Shown in pieces: positions 5,618 through 23,056 of a DNA stretch of 32,000 nt. Position 1 is the first letter of the stretch; the number at the start of each line of letters is the position of its first letter. The stretch covers positions 630,001 through 662,000 of the forward strand of contig NZ_CP042905.2 in the NCBI RefSeq assembly GCF_008000775.2. The letters run 5' to 3'. The stretch is from Promethearchaeum syntrophicum (lineage in GTDB: Archaea; Asgardarchaeota; Lokiarchaeia; Sigyniarchaeales; Promethearchaeaceae). Both the position numbers and the translations under genes were made by a program. The notes under the pieces are model-generated. The model saw only the letters and a program-made list of their open reading frames with translations, had not been told where the DNA came from and ran no database searches.

Positions 5618-6178
5618 ATGAATGTAAAAGACGCAATTGAAAATAGAAGAGCTTATCGATCTTTAGCTGAGATTAAAATAACTGAAGAATTAATCAATGA
5701 TTTGGGGACTGCTGCGCAATTAATGCCGAGTTGTTTTAATAAGCAACCTTGGCGATTTGTATTCGTGTATAAAGATCCTCAACTCGAACGAATGAAAAAT
5801 GAGGTTTTAAGTGAAGGAAACTTATGGGCAAAGAAAGCCTCAATGATAATTGCTGTGTTTAGCAAAAAAGAATTTGATTGTGTAATTAAAGAACGGGAAT
5901 ATTATTTATACGATACAGGAATGGCGGTTGGATCATTGCTTCTAAGAGCAACTGAGATGGGGTTAATTGCTCATCCAATAGCTGGCTACAATCCAAGTAA
6001 AGCTAGAGAAGTTTTGAATATTCCTTCAGAATATAATGTGATCAATTTGATAATAATTGGTAAGAAAGATCCGATTATTCCTGATAATTTTACTTCTTTT
6101 CAATTAGAATCCGAAAAAAATCGCCCTCCAAGAAAACCACTTAAAGAATTTGTATTTCACAACACCTTTAGTTCTTAA
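5618..6178 (+). CDS. Nitroreductase-family protein
   Basis: 186 aa. It has NRRAYRSL near the N-terminus and KQPWRFVFV, with an overall nitroreductase-like layout. Its stop overlaps the stop of the convergent gene in TTAA at 6175..6178. Confidence 0.85.
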   Translation: MNVKDAIENRRAYRSLAEIKITEELINDLGTAAQLMPSCFNKQPWRFVFVYKDPQLERMKNEVLSEGNLWAKKASMIIAVFSKKEFDCVIKEREYYLYDTGMAVGSLLLRATEMGLIAHPIAGYNPSKAREVLNIPSEYNVINLIIIGKKDPIIPDNFTSFQLESEKNRPPRKPLKEFVFHNTFSS

Positions 6179-6531
6179 TCAACATTTTTTAATTTTTTTT
6201 TCATCAGAGTTTCATATTCATCAAAATCAAATTTTTCTACAAAATCTATGCCAACTTGAGCATCATCCTTAGAAAATTTAAGTGGAATATTATTTTGATG
6301 GCATATATCAATAAATCGCCACAAATTCACTCCTGCAATTTCACTTGCTTTCCCAAATGATACTTTCTCATTACGATATTCATTTATTGCAGTTTCTATT
6401 CGTATCTCTTCAATTGATTTGGAAAGTAAATATCTTATTAACGTACTTTTATCCATTTTAAGGATTTTTTGAAGATCTTCAATTTCTTTATTCAAATCTT
6501 TTGGAACTACAATTGATAATCGTTCACTCAT
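6175..6531 (-). CDS. UPF0175-family protein (putative antitoxin / DNA-binding partner of the PIN-like protein)
   Basis: 118 aa. Its core is VSFGKASEIAGVNLWRFIDICHQNNIPL, typical of UPF0175. It overlaps the upstream PIN-like gene by 8 nt. Confidence 0.7.
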   Translation of the reverse strand: MSERLSIVVPKDLNKEIEDLQKILKMDKSTLIRYLLSKSIEEIRIETAINEYRNEKVSFGKASEIAGVNLWRFIDICHQNNIPLKFSKDDAQVGIDFVEKFDFDEYETLMKKKLKNVD

Positions 6532-7018
6532 ATTTTTTTCCCTCGTTTAGATATTTTTCATATAATTCATGCGTAAACCATCCATTTGAAGAATATTTTA
6601 ATAAATTTCTTTTAAAATGATTAAAATTGATAGATTTTAGCTTAATCAAGAGTAAAAGCATATCTGCCGTTGAAATTGATGATATTTTTCGCTGTTCTGC
6701 AACTAGTCTTGCTTTTCGATCATCTAATATAACTAAAGATTTCAAAGTTTCTGAAAGTAAAATTGATTCATATTCTCCCAAATGTAAGTACTTTTTTAAT
6801 AAGGGATCTTGTTTCTTAATTGAATATTTTAAGATTCTATGCTCATTGTAATAGTTTTCTAGTAGTATAGCATCTGAATAACCATGTTTAATACCTTTTT
6901 CAATAACTTCACAATAAACAGCATCTGGTATAATTATATTTTTAAATTTCTTCAGAATGAAATCAATTTTTCCAATTTTTGTTAAATGGATCAATGGTGA
7001 TGAATCAAATATGATCAT
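6524..7018 (-). CDS. PIN-like nuclease-domain protein (DUF3368 type), putative toxin
   Basis: 164 aa. The N-terminus MIIFDSSPLIHLTKIGKIDFILKKFKNIIIPDAVYCEV matches the DUF3368 pattern (DsSpLI.LakIg.ldlL...iP.aVy.Ev). It also has LGEYESILL and ILDDRKAR acidic motifs. Confidence 0.7.
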   Translation of the reverse strand: MIIFDSSPLIHLTKIGKIDFILKKFKNIIIPDAVYCEVIEKGIKHGYSDAILLENYYNEHRILKYSIKKQDPLLKKYLHLGEYESILLSETLKSLVILDDRKARLVAEQRKISSISTADMLLLLIKLKSINFNHFKRNLLKYSSNGWFTHELYEKYLNEGKKYE

Positions 7019-7072: not shown

Positions 7073-8428
7073 CTATTCTTTTTTAGGCCAAACCTTTCTG
7101 AAAGCACCTTTCTTCATTCGACAGACAGGACATTCCTCTGGTGGTTCATCACCATAGTGTAAATGACCACATATTTTACAACGCCACACGGTTTGTTGTT
7201 CCATGCCCTTTCTTGCAGCTTCTTTTACATCTTTTGCCCGTAATCTTGGTAAATCTTCCATTTTTGGCATAATTGGTTGAAAACCACCCTTCATAAGATA
7301 TTTTAGAACTATCATTCTTTGAACTTGATTTGTTCCTTCGTAGATCTGTAATAATCTGATATCTCTTAGAAGTTTCTCTACAGGGAAGTATTTCGTATAA
7401 CCGTATCCCCCCAAAATCTGTAATGCATCGTTTGCGACTTCAAAAGCTGCTTCAGTTGTATAAAATTTCGTCATAGATGCCCATAAAGTGCAATCACGCC
7501 CTTGATCGGCTTCCCAAGCGGAGCGCCAGATCATTAAGCGCGAAGTTTCAACTTTCTGGAACATTTCTGCAATTTTGAATTGAATGCCTTGAAAAGCCCC
7601 AATAGGTTGACCGAATGCTTTCCGATTCATAGCATGTTGCATGGCAAATTCCATAGCAGATCGTGCCGCACCAACAGCAAAAGCTCCGATCATTGGACGT
7701 GTGTGTGAAAAAACATTCATAGCTAAACCAAATCCTTCCCCGCCTTCTCTTCCCAGAACATTTTCAGCGGGGACTCTCACATTATCAAACTTAAGTGCCA
7801 CTGTGTTTGAAGTTCGTTGACCCATTTTCGGGATGTGATCAACAACTGAAACTCCATCCCAATCTGTTTCAATTACCACTCCTACAATTCCTTTGTGTCT
7901 AAGTTTTCGATCCACTGTAGCAAAAATTGTAGCATAATCAGCAAAACCCCCATTTGTAACCCAATATTTTGTTCCATTTAGAATGTAATCTTTCCCATCA
8001 GGTGTCGCTTTACATCGCATTCCTGCCACATCCGAGCCCATTCCAGTCTCTGATGTAGCGAAGCTAATCAGTTTAAAATTTTTAATTATATCCGTTAGAT
8101 ATTTTTCCTTAGCGATTTCATTAGTTGATAAAATCAGAGGTTCTTGTCCTAACCCATTATCAAAAATAGATGTTGCTAATCCAGGACCACAAGAAGCAAA
8201 TTCTTCAACCGCAATGGATGCATCTAACATTCCATGTCCTTGACCACCATATTTCTTAGGAATGCCTAAATTCATTAAGCCTTCTTTATATGCACGTTCT
8301 AATACATAGAGAGGCATTTCATCCATTTCATCAAAATACCATGCTACAGGTAAGATTTCGCGATGAGCAAATTCACGACTTTTCATTTGTAATGCTAATT
8401 GCTCATCTGTTAGTGTAAAATCAATCAT
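7073..8428 (-). CDS. Acyl-CoA dehydrogenase fused to a C-terminal rubredoxin/rubrerythrin-type Cys4 domain
   Basis: 451 aa. The ACAD body includes GSDVAGMRCKA, YWVTNGG and the catalytic-base region IYEGTNQVQRMIV. The C-terminal extension of about 70 aa contains WRCKICGHLHYGDEPPEECPVCRMKKGAF (C417, C420, C433, C436). Confidence 0.9.
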   Translation of the reverse strand: MIDFTLTDEQLALQMKSREFAHREILPVAWYFDEMDEMPLYVLERAYKEGLMNLGIPKKYGGQGHGMLDASIAVEEFASCGPGLATSIFDNGLGQEPLILSTNEIAKEKYLTDIIKNFKLISFATSETGMGSDVAGMRCKATPDGKDYILNGTKYWVTNGGFADYATIFATVDRKLRHKGIVGVVIETDWDGVSVVDHIPKMGQRTSNTVALKFDNVRVPAENVLGREGGEGFGLAMNVFSHTRPMIGAFAVGAARSAMEFAMQHAMNRKAFGQPIGAFQGIQFKIAEMFQKVETSRLMIWRSAWEADQGRDCTLWASMTKFYTTEAAFEVANDALQILGGYGYTKYFPVEKLLRDIRLLQIYEGTNQVQRMIVLKYLMKGGFQPIMPKMEDLPRLRAKDVKEAARKGMEQQTVWRCKICGHLHYGDEPPEECPVCRMKKGAFRKVWPKKE

Positions 8429-8649: not shown

Positions 8650-10029
8650 TTAGTAAAATTCGCAATCTTCTAAAATTTCTGAGATGTCTACCACGCTTAA
8701 GGCAGATTTACTTTCATTTGCGGCTTGATATAAATTGTTTTTGCAAAATACACAAGAACTAACCATCCATTCTGCGTTTGTTTCTTCAGCTTCTTTTAGC
8801 CGATCTTTACGTAATTCTTCAACACAATTCGTGGATTCTCCTAACCGATTTGTGGCAACAGTTGTTGCTAGTTCACCATAAAGAGTTTTTACTCCTCCTC
8901 CTGCTCCGCAACATCTGGACATATTTTTAATATGTTTCATTTCCACCAATTTAACACCCTCAATCATATTAATTAATTCTCGAGGGGGATCATAAATACT
9001 CATATATCGTCCGAGATGGCATGGATCATGATAAGTTACCAAGACAGGGTCTTCTTTTGTTCGTTTACCATATTTAATCTTGAGATTATGGTCGTTTACA
9101 AACTTTGGAATATACTCTGCGATATGATAGAGATTGAATCCCAACTTTTCTTTTAATAATCTGGGATATTCCAATGATAATGTTGAGAAGCATCCAGAGC
9201 ATGAAAATACTACGTCTTCAACTCCACTTTCCCGAATCATTTCTGTATTATGTTGGACTAAATCAAGAATATGGTCTTCTAATCCGGTTCGGTAAGATAC
9301 AGATCCACAACAAATCTCTTCAGGGAAAAAGACAAATTCAATCTTAAGTGCTTCGAGAATTTTACTTGTGGCAATAGCTAATTCCGTATTTCTAAATGCA
9401 GATGTGCAACCTACAAAATAACCAACTTTATATTTCTTCGTAGGAGTCCCTGATCTGATACTATTTAACAATTCTTTACCACGTTGTAAAGCACGTTCTG
9501 CTGCACCACAACCTTTGGTCCAATTAAAGCGAGTTTCTGGGGGTTCATTATATGGATTTCTTAGTTTTGCAACCCGTTCATCCAGTATTCCTAATTTCTT
9601 AGGGAGAACCCCTTGATTTATGGCATCTTTTCGGAATTTTTGAAACACTGCGACGGTATCAATACCAACAGGACAAACCTCCCTACAATTTCCACATAAC
9701 ATACAACGGAAGATGCTATCAACGATCCCTTCCTTATCAAATTTAATTTCTTTATTTGCTAAAGATTTGAGAATCCGATTTCGTCCTCCTGCGTAATCCA
9801 TTTCATTATATGTTATATCATATACTCTACAAACACTACGACAATATCCACACTGAATACATCGTTCAAAGTCATCAGTCAATGTTAAGGGGTCATGTAA
9901 ATTCTCTTGTTGAGGAGAAAATAACCCTGATCCAGGAGGACCAGTAGTATTTATATTCTTAACATACTGTTTTTCTTCTTTACTCATTTTTTCTCTCTCC
10001 TCCTTTTTTAAGCCACCCAATAAAGCCAT
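8650..10029 (-). CDS. HdrD/GlcF-like iron-sulfur protein (2x[4Fe-4S] ferredoxin motifs plus two CCG domains)
   Basis: It has CIQCGYCRSVCRV and CMLCGNCREVCPVG, plus CCG motifs (EEICCGSVSYRTG; MSRCCGAGGGV; DPCHLGR). The real start may be the ATG at 9985..9987 (MSKEEKQY), which follows AAGGAGGAG. The long form overlaps the upstream gene by 22 nt. Confidence 0.85.
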   Translation of the reverse strand: MALLGGLKKEEREKMSKEEKQYVKNINTTGPPGSGLFSPQQENLHDPLTLTDDFERCIQCGYCRSVCRVYDITYNEMDYAGGRNRILKSLANKEIKFDKEGIVDSIFRCMLCGNCREVCPVGIDTVAVFQKFRKDAINQGVLPKKLGILDERVAKLRNPYNEPPETRFNWTKGCGAAERALQRGKELLNSIRSGTPTKKYKVGYFVGCTSAFRNTELAIATSKILEALKIEFVFFPEEICCGSVSYRTGLEDHILDLVQHNTEMIRESGVEDVVFSCSGCFSTLSLEYPRLLKEKLGFNLYHIAEYIPKFVNDHNLKIKYGKRTKEDPVLVTYHDPCHLGRYMSIYDPPRELINMIEGVKLVEMKHIKNMSRCCGAGGGVKTLYGELATTVATNRLGESTNCVEELRKDRLKEAEETNAEWMVSSCVFCKNNLYQAANESKSALSVVDISEILEDCEFY

Positions 10030-11471
10030 TTAGCGATAAAAAAAAGTAGTTGAATTCGCCAATATTTCATTTTTGCCTGCACAAATCGATAGGAGTTAAC
10101 AAGGTTTTCAGGATCTAATTTTGTTTTTAACGCTTTGGTATATTCTAAACCATCGGGGTTAAATTTAATAAAATAGAAAGTGTTTACCACTCCGATTGTA
10201 TACAATCGATCTTGTTGGCCATATGCAAACTTAGATAATTCATGGAAATTTGCTTTAATTCCAAAAAATTCTCGTGGATTTTTGATATCAGAAAGACCGA
10301 AAATTTTAATTCGATTTCCTCCATTGATTCCTGCCATTATGTAGAAGGCATTTTTATACATTAACTTCTTTGTTTTACTATGATACATCTCATAAAAAGA
10401 TTGACACCTTTCATCTGCAATCCAATACTCTTGAAATACTGGATTTCGGCATAAACGACCTAAATTCAGTTCCGTATCTGCAATATCAAGCCATTTTTCC
10501 TTCAAATACCATTCATCCACGCTAAGACCGTCAGTCTTCAATGCAGCTTCCTTAGAAGACGCAAGTGCTTTTTCAGTTAAATCGGGATCATCAAAGAAGA
10601 CTGCATAGACAAAGAAATCCCTAGTTGGTAAAGTCTTGTGGGCTAGTTTTTCAAATTTTTTATTTGAAAGTGAAAGGAAAAAGGGTTTATTAACTTTATT
10701 GTTTTTCAGAGTCAAGTAAAAATCAATTGCTTTATTAAAAGATTTAAATCCATATCCTATCATTCCAAGAGAAGTTTTTAGGGTAGTAATAGTCATTTCT
10801 ATTTCAGCAATAGCCCCATAAATTCCAAGGGATTCGACAATGTTATCAAGAGTTAAATTTCCTTTTGAATCTTTAGTTATTTCTTCAATAGAGCCATCAG
10901 GCTTAACAAGTGTAACCGAAACAAGTGCATCTCTGATCCCACCATATTTTAAAACTCCAATTCCTGATTTTCCCGCTGAAGCGACAAAACCTCCTAAACA
11001 TGATGCCTTATAACTGGTTGGGTAACATTTTGGAGCTAAACCGTAGTCAAGTAAGGATTCTATGAGTTTTATCCATGAAATTCCTGCATCACATCTTACA
11101 ATCTTCTTATCAGCATCAATTTCGTGTACCTTATTCATCCTCCGCATATCAATAATAGCACCACCTCTCGTTGGAGAACTAGAGGAAAAACAAGATGTGG
11201 CAGCAGCTCGAATTGTTACTGGAAGTGAAAACTCCCGACACTTTTTCATGACTTTCGATAGTTCCTCAGTGTTACCAGGGCGAATAACATGGCTGGCTCG
11301 AAATTCTTCTTTAAACTTATAATGATATTTTGGTAACAAAGAAAGATCAGCGGATGTTGCTTCGATCTCGTAAGGATCGGTAGAAACATGTGAAGAAGAG
11401 ATGAATTTTTCAACTTCTTTGGTAAAGCGGTCGAGTTTTTCTAATTTTTGTGTTATGTTCATATTTATCAT
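10008..11471 (-). CDS. FAD-binding (PCMH/FAD_binding_4 type) dehydrogenase, GlcD/D-lactate dehydrogenase-like
   Basis: 487 aa. The FAD-binding region reads PGNTEELSKVMKKCREFSLPVTIRAAATS...GGAIIDMRRMNKVHEIDADKKIVRCDAGISW...ASCLGGFVASAGKSGIGVLKYGGIRDALVSVTLVKPDGS. It has a hydrophobic C-terminal tail (WRIQLLFFIAKWLYWVA). Confidence 0.85.
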   Translation of the reverse strand: MINMNITQKLEKLDRFTKEVEKFISSSHVSTDPYEIEATSADLSLLPKYHYKFKEEFRASHVIRPGNTEELSKVMKKCREFSLPVTIRAAATSCFSSSSPTRGGAIIDMRRMNKVHEIDADKKIVRCDAGISWIKLIESLLDYGLAPKCYPTSYKASCLGGFVASAGKSGIGVLKYGGIRDALVSVTLVKPDGSIEEITKDSKGNLTLDNIVESLGIYGAIAEIEMTITTLKTSLGMIGYGFKSFNKAIDFYLTLKNNKVNKPFFLSLSNKKFEKLAHKTLPTRDFFVYAVFFDDPDLTEKALASSKEAALKTDGLSVDEWYLKEKWLDIADTELNLGRLCRNPVFQEYWIADERCQSFYEMYHSKTKKLMYKNAFYIMAGINGGNRIKIFGLSDIKNPREFFGIKANFHELSKFAYGQQDRLYTIGVVNTFYFIKFNPDGLEYTKALKTKLDPENLVNSYRFVQAKMKYWRIQLLFFIAKWLYWVA

Positions 11472-11477
11472 CCCTTT

Positions 11478-12263
11478 TTATAATGTACTGATGTTTGCAA
11501 ATTCTATAAAGAATCCTAATAGATATGCCAACCACCAACAGCCAAGGGTTGTATATCCGGTTAATTTTGCTAATCTTCGCATTCCAGATGTCCCGAATAA
11601 CGCGCTAGCAAAACCAAATGTTAAACCTACTCCCCCACAAATAATGTGTAAGGCGTGGATCCACCCAGAATAACCTTTCATTATATCTTGGGTTAAAGTG
11701 AATAACAATATCACGTTCAAAAGTGTGATAATCCAAGCACCACCTGCACTATAACCGTGGTATATACTATATTTGGGTTCGTCATAGATAACAAGGAGCG
11801 TTCCAATTGTGACCAATATTAATGCTGGAAGCCCTAAAGTTGAACCGAGGTGAAGACTATCATACTCAACTGTTCCACCAATCCAAATGAAAATAGAAAT
11901 AGTGATCATGAGTATATAGAGAATGGCTAGAAATGTAACGAATATACTTCTGATTGAGGGTTTTTTTAGTTTTTCAGATAATAAAACTGCAATAATAGTT
12001 ATTCCCAGAATTCCAATAGAATTCACAAATAACCAGATTTCAAGATCATATATTGCGACAGTAGTAACTTCGATTATTCCAATCACAAGCAATGTTGTGA
12101 GCATCGTTATTAATAGAGTTACTAATGTAATCAATACACCTTTCTTCTCATGCTTTTTGAAATAGTCTAAGAATAAAATCGTCCCTAATAAAATTGACAT
12201 AATTCCAATTGTTAAGATTATTTGGGCGATTCTAATCGTTTCTGATGATGTTATATTAACCAT
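11478..12263 (-). CDS. Polytopic membrane protein (about 8 TM); possible heme-copper oxidase subunit III-like component
   Basis: 261 aa and almost entirely hydrophobic. The motif GWIH203ALH206IICGG resembles GFHGLHVIIGS of COX3. It occupies the gene position after the subunit-I-like gene. The function call is weak. Confidence 0.6.
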   Translation of the reverse strand: MVNITSSETIRIAQIILTIGIMSILLGTILFLDYFKKHEKKGVLITLVTLLITMLTTLLVIGIIEVTTVAIYDLEIWLFVNSIGILGITIIAVLLSEKLKKPSIRSIFVTFLAILYILMITISIFIWIGGTVEYDSLHLGSTLGLPALILVTIGTLLVIYDEPKYSIYHGYSAGGAWIITLLNVILLFTLTQDIMKGYSGWIHALHIICGGVGLTFGFASALFGTSGMRRLAKLTGYTTLGCWWLAYLLGFFIEFANISTL

Positions 12264-12280
12264 AATGATTGCCTTCTTTT

Positions 12281-13780
12281 TTATTTCTCCTTCAATAATT
12301 TGAGATCATGTCTATGTGCATGTAAGATTACGTATATTGCGAAAATAAACCCAAGTATCATAATCCAAACACCTACAAAAGTTAAAATCATAGTTGGCAT
12401 CTTATCTGTCGTTGGTTTTCTCATCATGTAAGCATTAGCAAAAGTAAATGCCCACGTACCTCCAATAGATAATAACCATGCAGCAATAGAGCTAGATCGA
12501 GTTGTTTCAGGTTGGAAATGTTTAATGGCTATTAAAATTACTAGCACCGCAAGCAACACAGCAAGTACATGCCAATGTCCAACATTAAAGTCATATTCTA
12601 CATCAACATACTCATGCGTTCTAAATATATGTCGTGTGCGCAAACCAACACTGATCCCACAGATTGTAACAACTATTTGAGCATAGAGATAAATCCAATA
12701 CAGTGCAAATCTAGCTGGATCTGCAAACATGCCTTTAATTTTATTTCCAAGTGATGTTGCGGTATAGTTTTCTCCTAAATGTTCTTTTGATATTTCCATC
12801 AATCCATTTATAGAGAGAGCTATAGTACATAATATTAAAATTCCTGCACCCACCCAGATTAAGTAATGATTTAACACCCAAGCACCATAGGAGATTGTGA
12901 TGATACCAATTGGACATAAAAATAGCATAATGTGATAGATTGTTCCCTTGATTTTACTTATTTTATATCCCATCATTGTAATCATCGCACCTGTCAAAGA
13001 AAGTTGTATGTGAAGATGAGATACAATAAATTCTTCCGGATGATCATGAATTAAGACTTTAACTACTTCCTCCGCGAAAAATGCATCTTGGTTTGGTCGA
13101 TTCAATACCCATATTGAATTAGTAAAAACTTCCATAGCAGCTAAGGCACCATATACAATTGACACAAGAACACAAAATGCTAAAAGCACCATTGAATAAT
13201 TTTCCAAATCTAATCCATAGAATAGAGCTCCATCTGTGGCTTCCTTAGGATCCGGGAATTTATTCGGTACTGGCCATGCCGCGATTATAAATATAACTCC
13301 TCCTAGAAAGACTAAAAACAACCCAAAGTAAAAAAACTCATGTAAAAACCTAATTCGAGTATAGGCAAAAAGTAGTCCACAGATCCCAGAGATAAAAGAC
13401 CCAGTTACCAAGGTTACTTTCAAGCTTGGTACATACTTTTCTCGAATTTCAAAGAATTCAAAACACCAAAAGGTAGTAGCAGCCACAAAAGGTGTTGCGA
13501 TAGAATGGTATATCATAACGATTCGAGCAGATCTTCCCATTAAATCATCATTATAGATATCAAATAGTGGTTCTCCCCCCCAAATAAAGGACATAGGTTC
13601 GGAAAACGTAAGGAGGAAAAGTACTTCGCAAACTAACAAAATAATCAAGCTGATATGGATTTTATTATAGTTAAATTTCGACTTTTCCTCTTTTTCATGG
13701 GTTTCCATTGTAAGCTCTGCAGTTCCTATTGGAGGAATGTTTTTTTCTTCTATTTTCAATTTCATTTCACTTTTATCCAT
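12281..13780 (-). CDS. 12-TM membrane protein; candidate highly divergent heme-copper oxidase superfamily subunit I-like protein
   Basis: 499 aa with 12 predicted TM helices. H92 is in TM2, HDH247PEEF is at TM6, N304-H305 is in TM7, H389-E390 follows, and GH402WH404VL is in TM10. Order and spacing parallel bovine COX1 H61, GH240PEVY, H290-H291, H368-D369 and AH376FH378YV. I am confident it is a CDS; the family call is tentative. Confidence 0.55.
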   Translation of the reverse strand: MDKSEMKLKIEEKNIPPIGTAELTMETHEKEEKSKFNYNKIHISLIILLVCEVLFLLTFSEPMSFIWGGEPLFDIYNDDLMGRSARIVMIYHSIATPFVAATTFWCFEFFEIREKYVPSLKVTLVTGSFISGICGLLFAYTRIRFLHEFFYFGLFLVFLGGVIFIIAAWPVPNKFPDPKEATDGALFYGLDLENYSMVLLAFCVLVSIVYGALAAMEVFTNSIWVLNRPNQDAFFAEEVVKVLIHDHPEEFIVSHLHIQLSLTGAMITMMGYKISKIKGTIYHIMLFLCPIGIITISYGAWVLNHYLIWVGAGILILCTIALSINGLMEISKEHLGENYTATSLGNKIKGMFADPARFALYWIYLYAQIVVTICGISVGLRTRHIFRTHEYVDVEYDFNVGHWHVLAVLLAVLVILIAIKHFQPETTRSSSIAAWLLSIGGTWAFTFANAYMMRKPTTDKMPTMILTFVGVWIMILGFIFAIYVILHAHRHDLKLLKEK

Positions 13781-14425
13781 TTAGTGTTTCACTTCTTCTT
13801 TTTTTTTCCCAAATATCCGCCATAATGCTAGTGGTGTCATAACTACAATTGTACAAACGAGTGTTGGTACCACAGCTTCAATCATGGAATGTTCTGTATC
13901 ATACCAAGGATGACCAGAAATAAGTGAATGTGTATAAGCACCGCCCAAACTACAAAATGCGGTGACTGCGATTAATGTCCATTCAGGAGCGTCTATGCTG
14001 TAATTATAATGATTTATTAAATCATCTGCTTGATTGGTATAGTGTCTGTCCTCCACTAAAGTTTTATTAAGTGTGCCAATATCTACTACATCAAAAACAT
14101 ATGCTTCTCGGATTGCATAGTCTCCGAATATTTCATGTTCTTCTACCTCATCGCTCACCAATAGATATTTATCTTGTGTAGTAAAATTTTCTATAAGCTC
14201 TTTAGGTAATTGATAGAATTCTATTGTAACTCTCTCTATGTAATGATATTCGGAATCTGATACTCCATGAGTGATATAAACACTCAATATTTTGTCTTGA
14301 TTATAATATTTGAGGTCTATAAATCTTGGATCATGGGCACTTGCATTTATGCTACCAGTAGTAAAACCAACCATAAATATTAGAGATATTAACAAAGTCC
14401 AAGCTCTCTTTCTATTATTACTCAT
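13781..14425 (-). CDS. Extracytoplasmic His/Cys-containing protein with an N-terminal signal/anchor and a C-terminal TM helix; occupies the subunit-II position
   Basis: 214 aa. The N-terminal hydrophobic segment is WTLLISLIFMVGFTTGSINASA and the C-terminal TM is AVVPTLVCTIVVMTPLALW. Candidate ligands are H31, H53, H61, C158, H166 and H172. Its stop codon directly abuts the ATG of the next gene. Confidence 0.6.
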   Translation of the reverse strand: MSNNRKRAWTLLISLIFMVGFTTGSINASAHDPRFIDLKYYNQDKILSVYITHGVSDSEYHYIERVTIEFYQLPKELIENFTTQDKYLLVSDEVEEHEIFGDYAIREAYVFDVVDIGTLNKTLVEDRHYTNQADDLINHYNYSIDAPEWTLIAVTAFCSLGGAYTHSLISGHPWYDTEHSMIEAVVPTLVCTIVVMTPLALWRIFGKKKEEVKH

Positions 14426-14460
14426 TTTCTTTTCCTATTTAAATTTTAAATCTGAGCAAG

Positions 14461-14487
14461 AGCTAAAGAATCAATCTAACTTTAGCT
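14461..14487. promoter_or_regulatory. Perfect 8-bp inverted repeat (AGCTAAAG-N11-CTTTAGCT) in the leader/promoter of the membrane-complex operon
   Basis: Read directly from the sequence. It lies 36-62 nt upstream of the ATG at 14425 (minus strand). On the plus strand a T-run follows it. Confidence 0.3.
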
Positions 14488-15290
14488 TTTTTACTCTCGT
14501 TCTTAATTTTGTTTTAATCATATATATAACTATATTTAAAATTATCCTTTTGACAATCTTCTCTTCAATTTTGATTTTTACTTCTCAATCTTCTTTTAAA
14601 TAGATCATACTTTATAGATAATTATTTTTAAAAATGCTCGATTCCAATTGCAGTGATAGTTATGGTTTCTTGGTATCAACAATTATAAAATATACACTGT
14701 GGTTATTATAATTACAATTATAATGTTTATTCGATCTTAAAAAGAGGAAATAATATTATTTAAGTTTCGCTCTCTATTTAAACATGATATTTTCTGGTCT
14801 TATTTTCAGATACTTGAATCAAACCAGTGAACAGAAAATTAAATTTAAGAAAAATTTTATGAGATTCAGATATTATATATTACATATTAATCTCTTTTTA
14901 ACCTACCTAGTATTTTTATATAAAGAAAATCGAGTGTGTAGATCATTTATAAAAAAAATTTAATAAACTCTCTATCTAACTCATGTATGATTTAGTTAAA
15001 TATTTATTAAACTAAGCCGCTCTTTCGAAGATAAATTTGAATATTGCTTTCGTTCTTATTAAATCTAATTGCTTTTATATAATGTTAACATGATGGATGA
15101 CCTTCTTTAAAATAAAGCAAAAAAAAGTAATGTAAAGAACTTCAAAAAAAAAATATAATAAAAAAAACATTATCTTCAAAATTGATCTATGTATTGATTT
15201 TTAGGAATGCTAAATTATAAAAAAAGTTGCTAATCCTACCGATTTTTGTCGAATTAGATTACCTTTGAAGTGCATAAAAAAAAATGGAAA

Positions 15291-16517
15291 TTACAACTTT
15301 TTAGGTATCTTTTTGATTTCCTGAGCAAATTTTTTGCCCATTTCAAAACCTTTATCTAAATCCTCATCCTTTGGCCCACCTTGAAATTCTAAAGGCTCTA
15401 AACAATCCCATTTCAATTTCTCAGTCATCTGATCGAAATGTTTCTGGGCTCCACCTGACCATCCGAAACTTCCAAAACGAAATACTTTCTTATTCCAAAC
15501 ATGCTTTTTAGCAAGCAAAGATATTAAATCTTGCATAGGGGGGTACATTTTATATTCATAAGTTGGCATTCCAAAAACCAGTCCTGCAGATTCCCATGCA
15601 GATGCTAAGATATAGGATTTATCATCCTCAGGCACCCGAAAAATTTTAACATGAACACCCTCTGATGCAATACCTTTCAATACCGAACGAAGCATTTTTT
15701 CTGTATTGGAATACATTGAGCCCCAAATGACAGTAATTTTTGGTTCAGCATAATCATTCATGTAATTTGCATAAGTTTTATATCTGTTTACTATTGTTCT
15801 AGGATTTCCTCTCCAGACTAATCCATGGGATGGTGCGATAATTTTGATATCTAAAGGTCCGAGGGCGTCAATAGCCTTTAGAACGAAGTTCGAGAAAGGT
15901 CCTACAATATTTGCATAATATCTTAAGGATTCATTTTCGTAAAAAAGATGATCTTCTTCGCTGTTTTCATCATCAAAAAGAGATCCCTTTAATGCACCAA
16001 ATGAACCGAAAGCATCGCATGGAAATAAAGTTTCTGTACTGCTCTCAAAAGTTGCCATCGTTTCTGGCCAATGAACATTTGGAATATCATAAAAAGTTAG
16101 AACCTTACCTTGACCTAAATCAAGTGTATCTCCTGAACTAACCGCTTTAACATTTTCTGTAATTCCATAAAAGGCTTCAACTAGAGGTTTTCCCTTTGTT
16201 GAAGTAATAATCTCTGCTTTTCCGGATAATTCATTAAACCCTCTTAAATCTCCTGTGTGATCCGGTTCTAAGTGATTAACAATAAAATAATCAACATCCT
16301 TGATACTTATTCCAATAGAATTCAATTCGTCAATTAAGTTAGATTGAGCTCCACCCCAATCACGAACTAAATCAATAATCGCAATTTTATCTCCTCTAAC
16401 TACGTATGAATTAATAGTTACCCCATTTGGGATTGGCCATAAACCTTCAAATAGATCATTTGTCGAAATATTTGCACCAATCCAATAAATTCCATCTGTA
16501 ATTTCAGTAGCTTTCAT
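15291..16517 (-). CDS. fprA: Flavodiiron protein (FprA-type A-type flavoprotein; O2/NO reductase)
   Basis: 408 aa. It has a metallo-beta-lactamase-like domain with the diiron motif HLEPDHTG, followed by a flavodoxin-like domain (KITVIWGSMYSNTEKM). Confidence 0.9.
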   Translation of the reverse strand: MKATEITDGIYWIGANISTNDLFEGLWPIPNGVTINSYVVRGDKIAIIDLVRDWGGAQSNLIDELNSIGISIKDVDYFIVNHLEPDHTGDLRGFNELSGKAEIITSTKGKPLVEAFYGITENVKAVSSGDTLDLGQGKVLTFYDIPNVHWPETMATFESSTETLFPCDAFGSFGALKGSLFDDENSEEDHLFYENESLRYYANIVGPFSNFVLKAIDALGPLDIKIIAPSHGLVWRGNPRTIVNRYKTYANYMNDYAEPKITVIWGSMYSNTEKMLRSVLKGIASEGVHVKIFRVPEDDKSYILASAWESAGLVFGMPTYEYKMYPPMQDLISLLAKKHVWNKKVFRFGSFGWSGGAQKHFDQMTEKLKWDCLEPLEFQGGPKDEDLDKGFEMGKKFAQEIKKIPKKL

Positions 16518-16553: not shown

Positions 16554-16892
16554 TTACAAAGGACGCCGTTCTGGTATTCCTTGAGTTTCTTTTCCACTAT
16601 CATAAAAATCTTGTGTTAAATATAAACCACAATAACAATGTCCATACTCTTCTTGATCGGGAATGCAATAATCACATGGACAAATAATATCTTTATCTTC
16701 TTCTTTAACCCCATCCCCATCTCGACAAGGACAGCTGTAATAACCATATCTATTGTAATTAGCATTTAAACCATCAATTATCGAATCCAAAAACTCAACA
16801 TCACGCGTTAATTTCCATGCGTTTTTTTTTGCAACCATTTCTACAAATTTTCGTGTATCTTCAATATTTTTTTCTTTTTTTGTTTTGGACAT
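16554..16892 (-). CDS. Ferredoxin:thioredoxin reductase catalytic subunit-like protein
   Basis: 112 aa. It has the CPC...CPC...CHC-type pattern: YYSCPCRDGDG...IICPCDYCIPDQEEYGHCYCGLYL. Confidence 0.85.
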   Translation of the reverse strand: MSKTKKEKNIEDTRKFVEMVAKKNAWKLTRDVEFLDSIIDGLNANYNRYGYYSCPCRDGDGVKEEDKDIICPCDYCIPDQEEYGHCYCGLYLTQDFYDSGKETQGIPERRPL

Positions 16893-16960: not shown

Positions 16961-17260
16961 TCATAGACCACAAATTTCTTCCCAATCACTTTTTACAAAC
17001 CCAACTATTGCTTTTTCATCATTACAGACTAAAAATGGAAATGCGACTCTTCTATTAAATTTCTTTTTAAGACTTTCTTTTATTTTTGATTTCTTTTCAA
17101 TATCTATTTTATCAACATAAACATATCTAAATTTAACTTCATTTTCCCTAAGAAAATTCAATCCTCTACGACAAAATCCGCATGTGGATAAAGCAAATAC
17201 TGTTAATTCATTTGTAGCAATTTTTCCGTCTTCTTCGATAAAGTCAATATCTTCGTACAT
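16961..17260 (-). CDS. Glutaredoxin/thioredoxin-like small redox protein
   Basis: 99 aa. It has a CxxC active site in a Grx-like context: VFALSTCGFCRRGLNFLRENEVKFRYVYVD. Confidence 0.8.
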   Translation of the reverse strand: MYEDIDFIEEDGKIATNELTVFALSTCGFCRRGLNFLRENEVKFRYVYVDKIDIEKKSKIKESLKKKFNRRVAFPFLVCNDEKAIVGFVKSDWEEICGL

Positions 17261-17391: not shown

Positions 17392-18582
17392 ATGAAGATA
17401 TTAATTATCGGAAATGGAATTGCTGGACAGACAGTTGCGGAAGAAATTCGAAAAAACAATTCAGACTATGAAATAAATATCATTACAAAAGAACCCTATC
17501 TTTATTATTCACGTATTTTCCTCCCGAGCTATCTAATAGGAGAAAAATCTTTAGATAAACTCATCTTACATTCAATTGAATGGTATAAAAATCGAAATAT
17601 TTCAGTTGAGTTAAATAAGCAAATTGACCAGATTGATCGGGTTAACAAAAAATTACATGTTCTTGAAGATGATAATTGGATTAACTATGATAAATTAGTT
17701 ATTGCATCAGGAAGTAATGCAAGAATACTCCATTTTGGAAATCCAAATCTAAAAGGTGTGTTCAGTTTGCGAAATGTCGCCGATGCAGATACAATTCGGA
17801 ATTATATTAATAAGAATAATGTAAAAGATGTACTAGTTATAGGGGGTGGGTTATTAGGGATAGAAATTGGTTTTAATTTACGAGATCTTCAATTAAATGT
17901 TACTATATGTGAAATTGCACCATATCTACTTCCACGGCAGTTAGATCGAGGGACTTCAAAACTCCTTCAAAAGTATCTGGAATCTAAAAATTTGGAGATA
18001 TTATGTGATGTTGCTGTAGAGAAAATATTAGGTGATAAAAGGGTTACAGGGATTAAACTGAAAAATGGTATGGAAAGGAAATTTGATATGATAATTCAGC
18101 AGATGGGAATCATTCCCGAGATATCTCTGGCTCAAAAAAGTGATATTCAAGCTGAAAAAGGCATTATCGTTAATGAATACATGCAAACAAACGATCCCGA
18201 TATTTATGCTGTTGGAGATTGTATTCAATTTAATGGAAGAATCTGGGGGATTATTCCTGCTAGTAGAGAGCAGAGTAAATTAGCTGCGAAACATATTTTA
18301 AAATTAAATCCTGAAAAATATCAAGGGACTTTCTGGAATACACGTTTAAAAATAGCTGGAATAAATTTAACTTGTTTAGGTTCTCCTGAAGAAGAAGATA
18401 AAGAAGAAACTAAGCTTATTGAATCAGTAGATGAAGAAAAATTTCTTTGTAGAAAAGTCCGGATTGAAGATAATCAAATTAAAAGTGCAATTTTGTTAGG
18501 ACCTGGAAAAGATAATTTCTTCGTGAAAAATTTAGGGAAAGAAGTGGATTTCGATGAAGTAAAAAAGAAAGTCTATGAATAA
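17392..18582 (+). CDS. NAD(P)H/FAD-dependent pyridine nucleotide-disulfide-family oxidoreductase (rubredoxin-reductase / NirB-N-terminal-like)
   Basis: 396 aa. It has two Rossmann motifs (KILIIGNGIAGQTVA; VLVIGGGLLGIEIGF) and AVGDC near the FAD-binding C-terminal motif. Confidence 0.85.
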   Translation: MKILIIGNGIAGQTVAEEIRKNNSDYEINIITKEPYLYYSRIFLPSYLIGEKSLDKLILHSIEWYKNRNISVELNKQIDQIDRVNKKLHVLEDDNWINYDKLVIASGSNARILHFGNPNLKGVFSLRNVADADTIRNYINKNNVKDVLVIGGGLLGIEIGFNLRDLQLNVTICEIAPYLLPRQLDRGTSKLLQKYLESKNLEILCDVAVEKILGDKRVTGIKLKNGMERKFDMIIQQMGIIPEISLAQKSDIQAEKGIIVNEYMQTNDPDIYAVGDCIQFNGRIWGIIPASREQSKLAAKHILKLNPEKYQGTFWNTRLKIAGINLTCLGSPEEEDKEETKLIESVDEEKFLCRKVRIEDNQIKSAILLGPGKDNFFVKNLGKEVDFDEVKKKVYE

Positions 18583-19154: not shown

Positions 19155-20108
19155 CTATTCTAAATTTTCTTCTTTTTTGAAGATTTCAATAGCTAATTTT
19201 TCAAACATCTCATCCACGTTTTCTCCTGTCTTTGCTGAGCATTCAATAAACAGAAATCCATGTTCGATTGCATAATTTAAACCCTCTTGTCTTGAAACCT
19301 TTCGTTCTAAGTCAGATTTATTTCCAACTAATAAAACTGGAACTTTGCCTAAATTTTCTTCTAAATCTGCAACCCACTTATCTAAGTGTTTAAACGATAA
19401 AGCATTGTTTATATCGTAACAGATTAAAGCTCCTTTGGCATCCTTAAAATATATACCTCGAATTTTGTCATATTGATCTTGACCTGCCGCGTCCCATACA
19501 TTCATTCGCGCTGTAAAGCGATATGTTCCTGAAAATAATAAATCTGTGCTCAAATAAGATGTTTTTATTTCTTTTGTGCCGAAATCCACACCCAAAGTTG
19601 TTTTAAGATCTTTCTTGAAATAATTATCTGTAAATCGAACTTTGATTGCTGTTTTTCCAACTGCTGTATCTCCGATCTCTATTATTTTGAAGGAGTAATT
19701 GCTTCTTAGAAGAGTTTTTGCTTCGTTTATTGCCCAACTTTCAATATTTTCCCCTGTTATTAGAGTCGGTGAAATATCACTCATTTCCGTAAGTTTTAAT
19801 ATAAAGCCATTGACATAAGTATCATATTCCATATTTTCTAAAGCTTTTTCATTAAAAGTTTCAATCTTACCAGAACAAGGTGCATTTAAAGTGGTTACTC
19901 CTTGTTCAGAAGCAATTGCTACAAACGGTAAGCCTACTTTAATTTCATTTTCAACTAGTAAACTTATTTCTGTAGGATTTTTTAAGAAAGCGTATCCTAT
20001 CTGGTCTAAGCCTATTATTTTCTTCTGTAAATTCATATAAACATGTTGATTTTTGCTATAATATAATTCATTCGGTAGATCATAACGACCATCAGCTATA
20101 GTTACCAT
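19155..20108 (-). CDS. Fusion protein: N-terminal GcvH-like (lipoyl-domain-fold) domain plus C-terminal Rab/Ras-like small GTPase
   Basis: All five G motifs are present: G1 GDTAVGKT, G2 TTLGVDF, G3 WDAAGQ, G4 GNKSD, G5 ECSAKTG. Residues 1-125 align by hand to E. coli GcvH (PNELYYSKNQHVYM vs PAELKYSKEHEWL; FVAIASEQGVTTLNAPCSGKIETFN vs [25 protein letters not shown]). Confidence 0.85.
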   Translation of the reverse strand: MVTIADGRYDLPNELYYSKNQHVYMNLQKKIIGLDQIGYAFLKNPTEISLLVENEIKVGLPFVAIASEQGVTTLNAPCSGKIETFNEKALENMEYDTYVNGFILKLTEMSDISPTLITGENIESWAINEAKTLLRSNYSFKIIEIGDTAVGKTAIKVRFTDNYFKKDLKTTLGVDFGTKEIKTSYLSTDLLFSGTYRFTARMNVWDAAGQDQYDKIRGIYFKDAKGALICYDINNALSFKHLDKWVADLEENLGKVPVLLVGNKSDLERKVSRQEGLNYAIEHGFLFIECSAKTGENVDEMFEKLAIEIFKKEENLE

Positions 20109-21073: not shown

Positions 21074-23056
21074 TTAAATTTCTTTGATATAATTCTCCCA
21101 AGGTCTTAATGCCCTTACTTCACTTAAAATTTGATTGCGAGTGAAATGATTCTGTATAATTGCATTTGATGGGCAAGAGCTTACACATACACCACATCCT
21201 TTGCATTTTATTGCATTTATATCTGCAGTTTTCGTAGTTTCATCAAAACTTATTGCATCATATGGGCAAAGTTGGATACATGATCTGCATCCTGAACATA
21301 TTTCTGGTTGAACCATTGAATAATAAGGCTCAATTTCTACTTCACCTGAATACATGAAATTATCCGCACTGCTAGCTGCTGCTTTCGCCTGAGCTACTGA
21401 GTCAGGTATATCACGTGGCGCTTGGCAAGTACCTGCAATAAAAATTCCAGTTGAGAGTGAATCTACTGGTTTAAGCTTTGGGTGTGCTTCCATGAACATT
21501 CCATCTTCTGAACATTGAATACCGAAAAATCGACCTACTTCATCAGCATCTTTTCGAGCTTCAATGGCTGTTGATAAAATGAGCATATCAACTTCAACTT
21601 CATACTTTTCAGCAAGTAAAGTATCGCTTCCCCTTAAAATTAAGGATCCATCATTTTTTTCAAAAACATCTCCAATTCTACCCCGGATAAAATTAATTCC
21701 ATATTCTCTTGAAGCAATTTCATAAAATTCTTCATAACCTTTTCCAAATGCCCTCAAATCAATGTAAAATATAAAAACTTCTGAATCTGGATATTTCTCT
21801 TTAAATTGCCTTGCTTGTTTTACCGCATACATACAACACACTCGTGAACAATATTTATGAGTGCCTTCATGAAAATCACGTGAACCTACACACTGTAAAA
21901 ATGCAATTCGTTTTGGTGTTTTATGGTCTGAAGGTTTTATTACTTTACCTAATGTTGGACCTGTACTGGAAAGTAAACGTTCCATCTCGATAGCAATTAG
22001 TACATTTTTATATTTTTGATATCCGTAGCGATAAAGTTGGGAAGGATCAAAAATATCATTTCCTGTTGCAATAATTATCGAACCGACTTTTAAATCAATA
22101 ATTTCATCTTTTAAGCTAAAATCTATGGCATTTACTTCACACGCATCAACACAAAGCATACATTCAATGCATGATTTTATATCGATTGTATATTGTTCAG
22201 GAATTGCTTGAGGAAATGGAACATAGGCCGCACGTCTATAACCCATATTATAATCAAATTCGTTTGGAACAGTAACAGGACAAATTTCACCACAAGCTCC
22301 ACAGCCTGTGCATATGGAATGATTTATTCTTCGATTTTTTTTTCTTACCTTAACCTCAAAATTTCCTACATTTAGATCTACACTTTCTATTTCAGAATAC
22401 GTAAGTAGATCTATATTCGGGTTTCGTCCAACTTCTACCATCTTAGGAGTAGTAATACATGCAGAGCAGTCCATTGTTGGAAAAGTTTTATCAAGTTGCG
22501 CCATATGACCTCCTATTGAAGGAGTTCGCTCTACTAAATGAACTTTATATTTATTTGCGAGATCAAGGGCAGCAAACATTCCTGTAATTCCTGCTCCGAC
22601 AATTAAAGCTTCTTTAGTTACCTCTATTTTTTGTCTAATTAATGGTCTATCATTCGATACTTTTGCAACCGCCATTTTAATATGATCTTTTGCAATTTCC
22701 ATAGCGCCTTTATGATCCCTCATACTTACCCATGATGCATGTTCACGTATGTTTGCTTGTTCAAAAAAGAACTCATTAAAACTGTTTTCACGCATGACTC
22801 TTCGATATGTTTCCTCATGCATGAGTGGACTACAAGCAGCTACTACAACACGATCAACTTTACCTGATTTTAAATCCTCTGCTATCAAATCCTGACCTGC
22901 ATTGCTACACATGAATTTGAAGTTTTTTACTGAAACAACATTAGGTATATGTTTTGAATATTCCGTTATTTCATCCATGTCAATAACATCTGCAATATTT
23001 TTACCACAATGGCAAATATATACTGCAACTTTTGGTTTAGGTCTTTCTAAACTCAT
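21074..23056 (-). CDS. hdrA: Heterodisulfide reductase subunit A (full-length, bifurcating type with ferredoxin-like inserts)
   Basis: 660 aa. The N-terminus has VAVYICHCGKNIA, the FAD motif is ALIVGAGITGMFAALDLA, and the protein has several CxxCxxCxxxCP motifs. There is a 4-nt ATGA overlap with hdrB. Confidence 0.92.
   Translation of the reverse strand: MSLERPKPKVAVYICHCGKNIADVIDMDEITEYSKHIPNVVSVKNFKFMCSNAGQDLIAEDLKSGKVDRVVVAACSPLMHEETYRRVMRENSFNEFFFEQANIREHASWVSMRDHKGAMEIAKDHIKMAVAKVSNDRPLIRQKIEVTKEALIVGAGITGMFAALDLANKYKVHLVERTPSIGGHMAQLDKTFPTMDCSACITTPKMVEVGRNPNIDLLTYSEIESVDLNVGNFEVKVRKKNRRINHSICTGCGACGEICPVTVPNEFDYNMGYRRAAYVPFPQAIPEQYTIDIKSCIECMLCVDACEVNAIDFSLKDEIIDLKVGSIIIATGNDIFDPSQLYRYGYQKYKNVLIAIEMERLLSSTGPTLGKVIKPSDHKTPKRIAFLQCVGSRDFHEGTHKYCSRVCCMYAVKQARQFKEKYPDSEVFIFYIDLRAFGKGYEEFYEIASREYGINFIRGRIGDVFEKNDGSLILRGSDTLLAEKYEVEVDMLILSTAIEARKDADEVGRFFGIQCSEDGMFMEAHPKLKPVDSLSTGIFIAGTCQAPRDIPDSVAQAKAAASSADNFMYSGEVEIEPYYSMVQPEICSGCRSCIQLCPYDAISFDETTKTADINAIKCKGCGVCVSSCPSNAIIQNHFTRNQILSEVRALRPWENYIKEI

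Follow-up and report, generated by a model that had tools for sequence, protein, structure and literature searches.

The closest described systems in fold to the locus presented here are the haem-copper oxidases (HCOs), and the families compared were the A-, B- and C-type O2 reductases, cNOR and qNOR, and the eNOR-, sNOR-, gNOR- and nNOR-type nitric oxide (NO) reductases. The locus is a five-gene operon of Promethearchaeum syntrophicum MK-D1, located in a stretch of 32,000 nucleotides (contig NZ_CP042905.2, positions 630,001 to 662,000, referred to below as the window). It encodes a membrane-anchored ectodomain protein, a protein with 12 transmembrane (TM) helices, a second polytopic and His-rich membrane protein of 261 residues (tm261), a flavin adenine dinucleotide-binding protein (FAD protein) and an iron-sulfur protein of the CCG type (CCG protein). 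We read the operon as encoding a membrane oxidoreductase that has an oxidase fold, is linked to haem O and carries partner modules without precedent; annotation does not yet recognise this type. With HCO subunit I the 12-TM protein shares the 12-TM core, the overall predicted fold and, as candidate haem ligands, a TM2 histidine together with an HxH motif of TM10; at the turn between TM7 and TM8 a W-x-x-x-H...GAG motif resembles the CuB HH region of HCOs, and the 12-TM loci are linked to a haem O synthase as in cyo and cta operons. The differences are the absence of detectable sequence-profile similarity, the absence of a cupredoxin or cytochrome c subunit II, and the electron donor, which would be a cytoplasmic flavo/Fe-S module instead of quinol or cytochrome c.

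NnrS is a 12-TM haem/copper membrane protein of NO-responsive regulons. Like the 12-TM protein it is polytopic, rich in histidine and encoded near NO/O2-responsive regulators (Crp/Fnr and YgbA_NO in the case of the 12-TM protein), but none of 50 members of the 12-TM family was matched by the NnrS profile (PF05940) at E ≤ 10, and the fold likeness is to HCO and not to NnrS.

Characterised pairs of an FAD_binding_4 protein and an HdrD/GlcF-type protein work as dehydrogenases, the HdrD/GlcF-type partner classically relaying the electrons to the membrane (GlcDEF, Dld-II). The operon has in common with GlcDEF, Dld-II/LdhAB and LctD the pairing of an FAD_binding_4 protein with a protein of two [4Fe-4S] and two CCG motifs. 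It differs from these 2-hydroxyacid dehydrogenases in that its FAD protein has no recognisable FAD-oxidase_C domain, scores far below all equivalog cutoffs and carries an amphipathic tail; and whereas the dehydrogenases are encoded alone or with a quinone-reducing anchor, the FAD protein of the operon invariably has the genes of the 12-TM, tm261 and ectodomain proteins beside its own. In HdrDE, DsrMK and TfrAB, as in the operon, the gene of an HdrD-like CCG protein stands beside that of a His-rich polytopic membrane protein; tm261 is, however, unrelated in sequence to HdrE, DsrM or NarI, the operon has an extra flavoprotein and an HCO-like protein, and no thiol substrate is implied. The ectodomain protein finds its best fold matches in superoxide reductases (SORs; neelaredoxin/1Fe-SOR), with which it also shares the order His, His, His, Cys. 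Classical SORs are soluble cytoplasmic proteins, whereas the ectodomain protein is membrane-anchored and outward-facing, has a helical insertion and is without the His of the CxxH motif.

No published description of the 12-TM family or of the five-gene complex was found in full-text literature searches, in agreement with an earlier note on the sequence of the window, which knew of no described complex of this composition. The 'distant HCO homologue' reported in BMC Biology in 2022 is a halobacterial family.

The 12-TM family, its predicted fold and its link to a haem O synthase gene

A word-based search delivered 128 homologues of the 12-TM protein, all named ones of which are Asgard 'hypothetical proteins'. 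A profile search of 1.8 billion representatives delivered 272 relatives, and when one genome per species was scanned, relatives turned up in 520 genomes, which belong to the Promethearchaeota, Thor-, Hermod-, Hod- and Heimdallarchaeota among the archaea and, among the bacteria, to many Chloroflexota (Anaerolineae) and a few Zixibacteria, Ignavibacteriota and Aminicenantes. Open reading frames (ORFs) called at 87 related loci were queried with the five proteins of the window and with a haem O synthase. Three clades are distinguished, given here with their identities: clade A (at least 43%; Loki/Thor/Hermod/Hod; 20 non-redundant loci), clade B (30-37%; Heimdall/Hod/Thor/Hermod) and clade C (25-31%; mostly Chloroflexota). 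Synteny counts given below as fractions cover loci with enough flank for the gene in question.

The AlphaFold (AF2) model of the 12-TM protein, built from a 50-sequence alignment, has a pLDDT of 86.6 and a pTM of 0.86 and consists of 12 long helices, the number counted in the earlier note. In a Foldseek search of the PDB the top 19 matches were all HCO subunit I (bo3, aa3 and mitochondrial complex IV), with a probability of about 1.0, a TM-score of about 0.5 and a TMq of up to 0.52, whereas MFS, MATE, antiporter-like and GPCR folds remained below a TM-score of 0.2. The modelled protein is thus HCO-subunit-I-like at the level of the fold. It has no Pfam or NCBIfam match, and none in the PDB by phmmer or profile search.

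Seven histidines (H92, H147, H255, H257, H305, H402 and H404) are invariant in 85 sequences of the three clades, as are R86, R387, E395, W301, W403 and W435. The histidines lie in the outer half of the even-numbered helices TM2, 4, 6, 8 and 10, with H402 and H404 in a GHWH motif of TM10. An hhalign alignment with E. coli CyoB, although non-significant, is nonetheless collinear: it places GH402WH404 on CyoB AH419FH421, which we take to be the TM10 haem ligands of the bo3 structure, and AWVLNH305YLIWVGAG on VWLHH334FFTMGAG in the CuB region, while H92 in TM2 and CyoB H106 stand about 7 residues apart in the alignment. Invariant histidines placed differently from those of HCOs are found in TM4 (H147), in an HxH motif of TM6 (H255/H257) and at the start of TM8 (H305). 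Three clade-A paralogues keep H92, H147, H255, H402 and H404 and lose H257, H305, E237, W301 and W403, a pattern that fits separate roles for haem-ligand and third-metal histidines. N304 was considered as an 'nNOR-like' Asn stand-in for a CuB His and rejected as a trait of the family, because clade C has Ala at this position and clade B varies.

Second 12-TM paralogues occur upstream of the main cluster at three loci (Table 1), each followed by an ectodomain gene. P0125 (785 aa) is a natural fusion of a 12-TM protein with an extra TM helix and a C-terminal FGE-sulfatase domain, and because of this fusion the outward-facing partners are regarded as genuine subunits. A more divergent 12-TM protein, P0262 (777 aa), has SHTHV and GHEH motifs and is fused to a beta-propeller-like C-terminal region. 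At four Chloroflexota loci a canonical HCO subunit I gene (COX1 at 3.4e-66) is located directly upstream of the 12-TM gene. The TM6 motif of these four HCOs is WWGLD in place of the usual GHP, so that Asp replaces the first CuB His, which is reminiscent of variant NO-reductase-like HCO families.

A UbiA-family gene resembling haem O synthase accompanies the 12-TM gene. It matches TIGR01473 at 2.2e-60 (204.8 bits; cutoff 210.3), scores at most 53 bits with other UbiA subfamilies and is 31% identical to E. coli CyoE. Of 66 loci with enough flank, in Asgard archaea and Chloroflexota alike, 56 have it no more than 6 kb downstream of the 12-TM gene (clade A 19/20, clade B 9/9, clade C 28/37), and the order in most clade-A loci is 12-TM, haem O synthase, tm261, FAD, CCG. 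By its operon position the 12-TM family thus appears linked to haem O, as HCOs are to haem O/A, and the 12-TM protein is presumed to be the haem O-binding catalytic or electron-conducting core. The window itself holds no haem O synthase gene, and the closest related locus (L026) is also without an adjacent copy; the MK-D1 gene is located elsewhere in the genome (P0339, annotated as protoheme IX farnesyltransferase). In about 7-10 clade-A loci (L001:14793-16470 and equivalents) the cluster is neighboured by the gene of a polytopic membrane protein that faintly matches the cytidylyltransferase family, and after it by that of an isopentenyl phosphate kinase (NF040647 at 4.4e-51); this neighbourhood may be tied to the supply of prenyl groups for haem O synthesis.

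The partner proteins and their conservation

In clade A the tm261, FAD and CCG genes follow the 12-TM gene in 19/19 loci and the ectodomain gene is present in 16/16. The five genes are thus co-conserved in many Asgard genomes, and their arrangement is far beyond chance. In clade B the UbiA gene directly follows the 12-TM gene in all nine loci, and none of the nine has the FAD, CCG, tm261 or ectodomain genes. Typical companions in clade C are an FGE-sulfatase-like lipoprotein, multihaem cytochromes c and a Crp/Fnr regulator. The coupling of the five genes put forward in the earlier note therefore stands for clade A, where the FAD/CCG pair is hard-wired to the 12-TM membrane module and not to a cytochrome b or NrfD anchor, but does not extend to the wider 12-TM family (Heimdall, Chloroflexota), which occurs without the FAD/CCG module. 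Three polytopic families of unknown function (fam2, fam3 and fam8) are encoded near the 12-TM gene in all clades; none of these accessory membrane families is present in the window.

The FAD protein belongs to the VAO/PCMH superfamily, with FAD_binding_4 (PF01565) detected in 16/16 orthologues. Against the NCBIfam GlcD model it scores 91 bits (cutoff 568) over profile positions 1-201 only. Its PDB profile matches, which are confined to the FAD domain, end at about residue 270; they comprise alkyl-DHAP synthase as the best, LctD, glycolate oxidase, D-lactate and 2-hydroxyglutarate dehydrogenases and DprE1. The FAD-oxidase_C domain (PF02913) is matched in only 3/16 members, over its last 25 positions and at E ≥ 0.007; to judge from these profiles the cap domain is divergent and an FAD-oxidase_C cap essentially absent. 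A 2-hydroxyacid as substrate, as the earlier note had proposed (or similar), is consequently left unsupported, the likeness to GlcD, Dld and LctD being limited to the FAD domain and the cap not being recognisable. The C-terminal tail, described in that note as hydrophobic, is kept in the orthologues; its character is amphipathic. It suggests association with the membrane, and the protein is presumed to be a cytoplasmic, membrane-associated dehydrogenase.

The CCG protein matches Pfam CCG at 1.6e-32 (two stretches) and Fer4_8 at 8.4e-14. The cysteines of its two ferredoxin motifs (CX2CX2CX3C) are 57/60/63/67 and 109/112/115/119, those of the CCG motifs (CXnCCXnCX2C) 208/240/241/277/280 and 337/373/374/426/429. 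The best NCBIfam model is TfrB (1.8e-57, 195 bits; cutoff 385), followed by LdhH, GlpC and GlcF, and the best PDB match is 9ojn, an 'iron-sulfur-binding reductase' (3.5e-30), followed by HdrB. All NCBIfam scores are below their cutoffs, so that no equivalog (TfrB, GlcF, GlpC, LdhH or HdrD) is assignable. From its motifs the protein is classified as HdrD/GlcF/GlpC/TfrB-type, with two predicted 4Fe-4S ferredoxin motifs and two complete CCG motifs.

The hydropathy profile of tm261 supports about eight TM segments, the number counted before, and the conserved part is a C-terminal 4-TM core. H138, H169, H203, H206 and R229 are invariant in a curated 14-sequence alignment and conserved to at least 90% in a set of 23 sequences. 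According to the positive-inside rule H138, H203 and H206 would lie towards the outer side of the membrane and H169 towards the inner. Pfam, NCBIfam and the PDB sequences gave no match for tm261. CtaA/COX15, cytochrome b561 and CopD-like proteins were considered as identities for tm261 and set aside, no significant Pfam or PDB match being found. As a candidate haem- or metal-binding protein, tm261 could connect the CCG protein with the 12-TM and ectodomain proteins. An extra pair of ectodomain-like (158 aa) and tm261-like (267 aa) genes without an adjacent 12-TM gene (L008:6136-7429) hints at an interaction of tm261 with the ectodomain protein.

The ectodomain protein, homologues of which were detected only in clade-A loci, consists of an N-terminal signal/anchor helix, a beta-sandwich with a helical insertion and a C-terminal TM helix. 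The AF2 model is moderately confident (pLDDT 76.9). Its top Foldseek matches in the PDB are SORs of Ignicoccus, Nanoarchaeum, Archaeoglobus and Pyrococcus (4brj, 6gq8, 4bk8 and 2hvb; probability 1.0, E about 4e-3, TMt about 0.5), with generic Ig/FN3 folds close behind. P33, H53, H61, Y62, Q132, C158 and G162 are invariant in 21 members, and H31 is found in 18/21. One His precedes strand 1, two are in the loop of strands 2-3 and the Cys ends a late strand; compared with verified SOR sequences, H31, H53, H61 and C158 follow the order of four of the five SOR iron ligands. The domain is described as SOR-like, with a putative His3Cys metal site. Two other identities were considered: a cupredoxin or subunit II is not backed by the fold search, in which SORs were best, and an N-terminal 'histidine brace' (cleavage ASA/H) is weakened by the replacement of H31 by A, T or D in 3/21 homologues.

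Layout of the operon and neighbouring genes

All five ORFs and their spacers were found again on the minus strand at 8650-14425 as described before, with junctions between ORF ends of 0 nt, 17 nt and 6 nt and an overlap of 22 nt (Table 1). The alternative start of the CCG gene given in the earlier note, an ATG at 9987 preceded by a Shine-Dalgarno sequence, is most likely the true one, because AGGAGG precedes it and because it agrees with the N-termini of the orthologues; the predicted protein would then have 445 aa and be separated by a gap of 20 nt. For the 12-TM gene NCBI and Logan gene calls start at Met6 (13765), giving 494 aa and a spacer of 15 nt, not 0. The operon is flanked by intergenic regions of 865 nt upstream and 220 nt downstream. 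The upstream region is unusually long and very AT-rich; no ORF of at least 80 aa, Rfam family or notable repeat was found in it. The window as a whole is AT-rich (G+C about 32%), and a scan for sigma-70 promoters and terminators is uninformative in such an archaeon.

Table 1. Coordinates of the features of the window and of selected genes at related loci (locus handle before the colon)
Feature	Position	Strand	Basis or remark
Leucine-rich-repeat protein, 620 aa	284-2146	+	
Thioredoxin-like DUF255 (Thioredox_DsbH) protein, 706 aa	3348-5468	-	faint GlcNAc-2-epimerase-like region
Two overlapping small ORFs	6175-7018	-	UPF0175 antitoxin-like, 118 aa; weak PIN domain, 164 aa
Acyl-CoA dehydrogenase fused to C-terminal rubredoxin-like zinc/iron-binding domain (RUBY_RBDX)	7073-8428	-	immediately downstream of the operon
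CCG Fe-S protein, 459 aa	8650-10029	-	ORF; 4Fe-4S dicluster and two CCG stretches
FAD protein, 487 aa	10008-11471	-	ORF; Pfam FAD_binding_4 E=3.3e-30
tm261, polytopic His-rich membrane protein, 261 aa	11478-12263	-	ORF; about 8 TM by hydropathy
12-TM protein, 499 aa	12281-13780	-	ORF; identical to DSAG12_01126
Membrane-anchored ectodomain protein, 214 aa	13781-14425	-	ORF; identical to DSAG12_01127
Intergenic region, presumed promoter/5' region	14426-15290	.	865 nt, AT-rich; between the operon and the flavodiiron protein gene
Flavodiiron protein	15291-16517	-	Pfam
Ferredoxin-thioredoxin-reductase-like (FTR-like)	16554-16892	-	Pfam
Glutaredoxin-like	16961-17260	-	Pfam
Rubredoxin-reductase-like, Pyr_redox_2 and Rubredoxin_C	17392-18582	+	Pfam
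Ras/Roc-family small GTPase	19155-20108	-	Pfam Ras 1.4e-46
HdrA-like flavo/Fe-S proteins (660 and 679 aa) and HdrB-like two-CCG protein (341 aa)	21074-24078; 29137-31176	-; +	
Canonical HCO subunit I genes	L043:8267-9895; L057:3573-5201; L067:7201-9030; L083:3784-5412		
Second 12-TM paralogues	L003:1935-3551; L020:5250-6602; L024:4950-6269		

The flavodiiron and the rubredoxin- and thiol-linked genes next to the operon in MK-D1 (Table 1) have counterparts in character elsewhere. Catalase and Fur genes stand near the cluster at locus L001, YgbA_NO is encoded in seven clade-A loci, and clade C loci carry flavodiiron and DUF438-hemerythrin-PAS proteins together with Crp/Fnr regulators. It is chiefly because such O2/NO-stress genes recur as neighbours in unrelated lineages that a small oxidant is proposed as the acceptor of the complex.

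Further genes of the window are noted for completeness. The HdrA- and HdrB-like genes add heterodisulfide-reductase-type modules to the window besides the CCG protein of the operon. The small GTPase, an Asgard 'eukaryotic signature'-type gene, has an N-terminal extension weakly like the glycine-cleavage H protein. The two overlapping small ORFs at 6175-7018 look like a toxin-antitoxin pair.

A proposed electron path, its rivals and its meaning

We propose, with a probability of about 0.45, that the five genes encode one quinone-independent, flavo/Fe-S-fed membrane reductase with haem O and an oxidase fold, which would scavenge O2, NO or superoxide. Observed are the order of the genes, their conservation and genomic context, the domains, the likenesses in fold and the invariant residues; the cofactors, the donor and the acceptor, the way the electrons run and the joining of the five proteins into one complex are inferred, as follows. 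The VAO-type flavoprotein, cytoplasmic and membrane-associated, would oxidise a cytoplasmic substrate; the HdrD/GlcF-type protein with its two [4Fe-4S] and two CCG motifs would relay the electrons to the membrane, and tm261 would bring them into it and onward to the haems of the 12-TM protein. There, a low-spin haem would be ligated by H92 of TM2 and one His of the TM10 motif GH402WH404, and a high-spin haem, probably haem O, by the other TM10 His; H255/H257, H305 and/or H147 may form a further metal site. In the terminal step O2, NO or superoxide would be reduced at the binuclear site of the 12-TM protein and/or at the metal site of the ectodomain. No quinone pool would take part in the path, a bypass already suggested in the earlier note, and the physiological role would be the scavenging of O2, NO or reactive oxygen species in an anaerobe. 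The model fits a modular electron input, with the FAD/CCG pair in clade A and multihaem cytochromes c with Crp/Fnr regulators in clade C.

Several observations weigh against this proposal. Pfam COX1 (PF00115) gave no match at E ≤ 10 in 50 members of the 12-TM family, whereas a genuine HCO from a related locus was matched at 3.4e-66, and hhalign of the 12-TM protein against CyoB and four canonical HCOs was non-significant (E about 0.05, probability about 1%). The canonical CuB set, the His of HPEVY in TM6 and the HH of TM7, is not kept in the family: H245, equivalent to the TM6 CuB His, varies, with K or H found in clade C, and only H305 stands at the HH position, its neighbour being N, A or M. 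Because there is no COX1 match and the canonical pattern of CuB histidines is missing, the 12-TM protein is not a recognisable member of the HCO family, and the designation 'HCO-like' given to the membrane module beforehand is upheld by the fold but not by the sequence. In the ectodomain the fourth His of SORs (CxxH) is missing, no His following C158 at a distance of 2-3 residues and H172 and H179 not being conserved. The domain has no Pfam (including PF01880), NCBIfam or PDB sequence/HMM match, and hhalign with verified SOR sequences was not significant (probability 0.7%); with these searches negative, homology to SORs at the sequence level was rejected. Because the CxxH His is absent and no sequence method backs homology, the ectodomain is called SOR-like only. 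An outward-facing redox domain is, moreover, not obviously needed if cytoplasmic electrons end in the 12-TM protein, and the FAD protein, with its amphipathic tail, could have a substrate that is soluble in lipid. Finally, MK-D1 is described as a strict anaerobe without respiration.

A different role may be considered for three of the proteins, in which tm261, FAD and CCG would modify a membrane-bound cofactor of the 12-TM protein instead of supplying it with electrons, for example by oxidising haem O without O2 to a haem A-like product or by a step on a prenylated cofactor, the Fe-S protein taking up the electrons. Such a role is suggested by the position of the three genes directly after haem O synthase in most clade-A loci, by a VAO/PCMH flavoprotein that lacks the cap domain of 2-hydroxyacid dehydrogenases, by a tail suited to a membrane-embedded substrate and by lipid-acting relatives in the PDB (alkyl-DHAP synthase, the best profile match, and DprE1). 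It would also be in line with a 2026 survey in which canonical haem A synthase among Asgard archaea was found only in Heimdallarchaeota (PMC12808453). However, clades B and C have the 12-TM protein and haem O synthase and do without tm261, FAD and CCG, which are thus not needed for the core function. There is further no precedent for a flavin-dependent oxidation of a haem methyl group, and the classical function of an HdrD/GlcF-type partner beside an FAD_binding_4 protein is to relay electrons to the membrane, so that we consider a maturation role unlikely. MK-D1 is an obligate syntroph, which agrees with a complex that passes electrons from a cytoplasmic substrate through membrane haems and the ectodomain to an extracellular acceptor or a carrier of the syntrophic partner, as an outlet for a fermentative syntroph and not for detoxification of oxidants. 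The outward ectodomain with its His and Cys is indeed specific to the clade with the cytoplasmic FAD/CCG module, and the ectodomain-like and tm261-like pair without 12-TM protein at L008 suggests a transmembrane redox pair. This outlet would, however, leave the association with haem O synthase and the HCO-like fold with its extra invariant histidines unexplained; the neighbours are O2/NO-stress and not electron-export genes, and the nearest folds of the ectodomain are SORs. We regard it as improbable too.

A reversed flow, in which the membrane haems collect electrons from outside or from the membrane and pass them through the CCG protein to a cytoplasmic disulfide or other acceptor, with the flavoprotein as a second cytoplasmic partner, would follow the example of HdrDE, in which HdrD normally pairs with a membrane cytochrome b. 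It is compatible with two complete HdrB-type CCG motifs, with family matches of TfrB, HdrB and DsrK-type (thiol/disulfide chemistry) and with the HdrA- and HdrB-like genes in the window, but the cluster holds no candidate system for an external donor, an HCO-like fold and haem O go with terminal reduction rather than electron uptake, characterised FAD_binding_4/CCG pairs are generally known as dehydrogenases, and the context is one of defence against oxidative stress, which makes this direction quite improbable. Scarcely any weight is given to ordinary adjacency, that is, a conventional D-lactate/glycolate dehydrogenase (GlcD and GlcF-like) beside unrelated membrane genes. FAD_binding_4/CCG pairs are common dehydrogenases, and GlcD and GlcF are among the weak NCBIfam matches; these scores are, however, far below the cutoffs, the GlcD cap domain is missing, and the five genes are co-conserved and tightly spaced in about 20 genomes down to 43% identity. 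Synteny effectively refutes this explanation.

Canonical HCOs of Asgard archaea have been reported mainly in Heimdallarchaeia, and there mainly as A-type (bioRxiv 10.1101/2024.07.04.601786). A wider statement joins all parts of the proposal: that the 12-TM family founds a deeply divergent, hitherto unrecognised branch of the HCOs or a sister group to them, dependent on haem O and widespread among anaerobic Asgard archaea and Chloroflexota, and that in Loki/Thor/Hermod/Hod, MK-D1 among them, with its cytoplasmic flavo/Fe-S module and outward-facing SOR-like domain, it forms a self-contained, quinone-independent O2, NO or superoxide reductase. Taken as a whole this is tentative and rather doubtful; if true, most Asgard lineages, and not Heimdallarchaeia alone, would own a haem-based, oxidant-reducing membrane enzyme.

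An HCO fold with another set of invariant histidines bears on the evolution of the HCO active site, and the 12-TM family would be one with interchangeable electron-input modules, a flavo/Fe-S dehydrogenase, multihaem cytochromes c or an FGE-sulfatase-like lipoprotein. With MK-D1 in culture and the operon compact, the idea is directly testable. The handling of oxygen in Asgard archaea is central to scenarios of the origin of eukaryotes; with a conserved haem-O-linked oxidase-fold complex, the Loki/Thor-type archaea, among them the first Asgard archaeon brought into culture, would have one more redox or oxidant-reducing system, so far overlooked, and the operon may be a novel means by which a strict anaerobe reduces oxygen or oxidants related to it.

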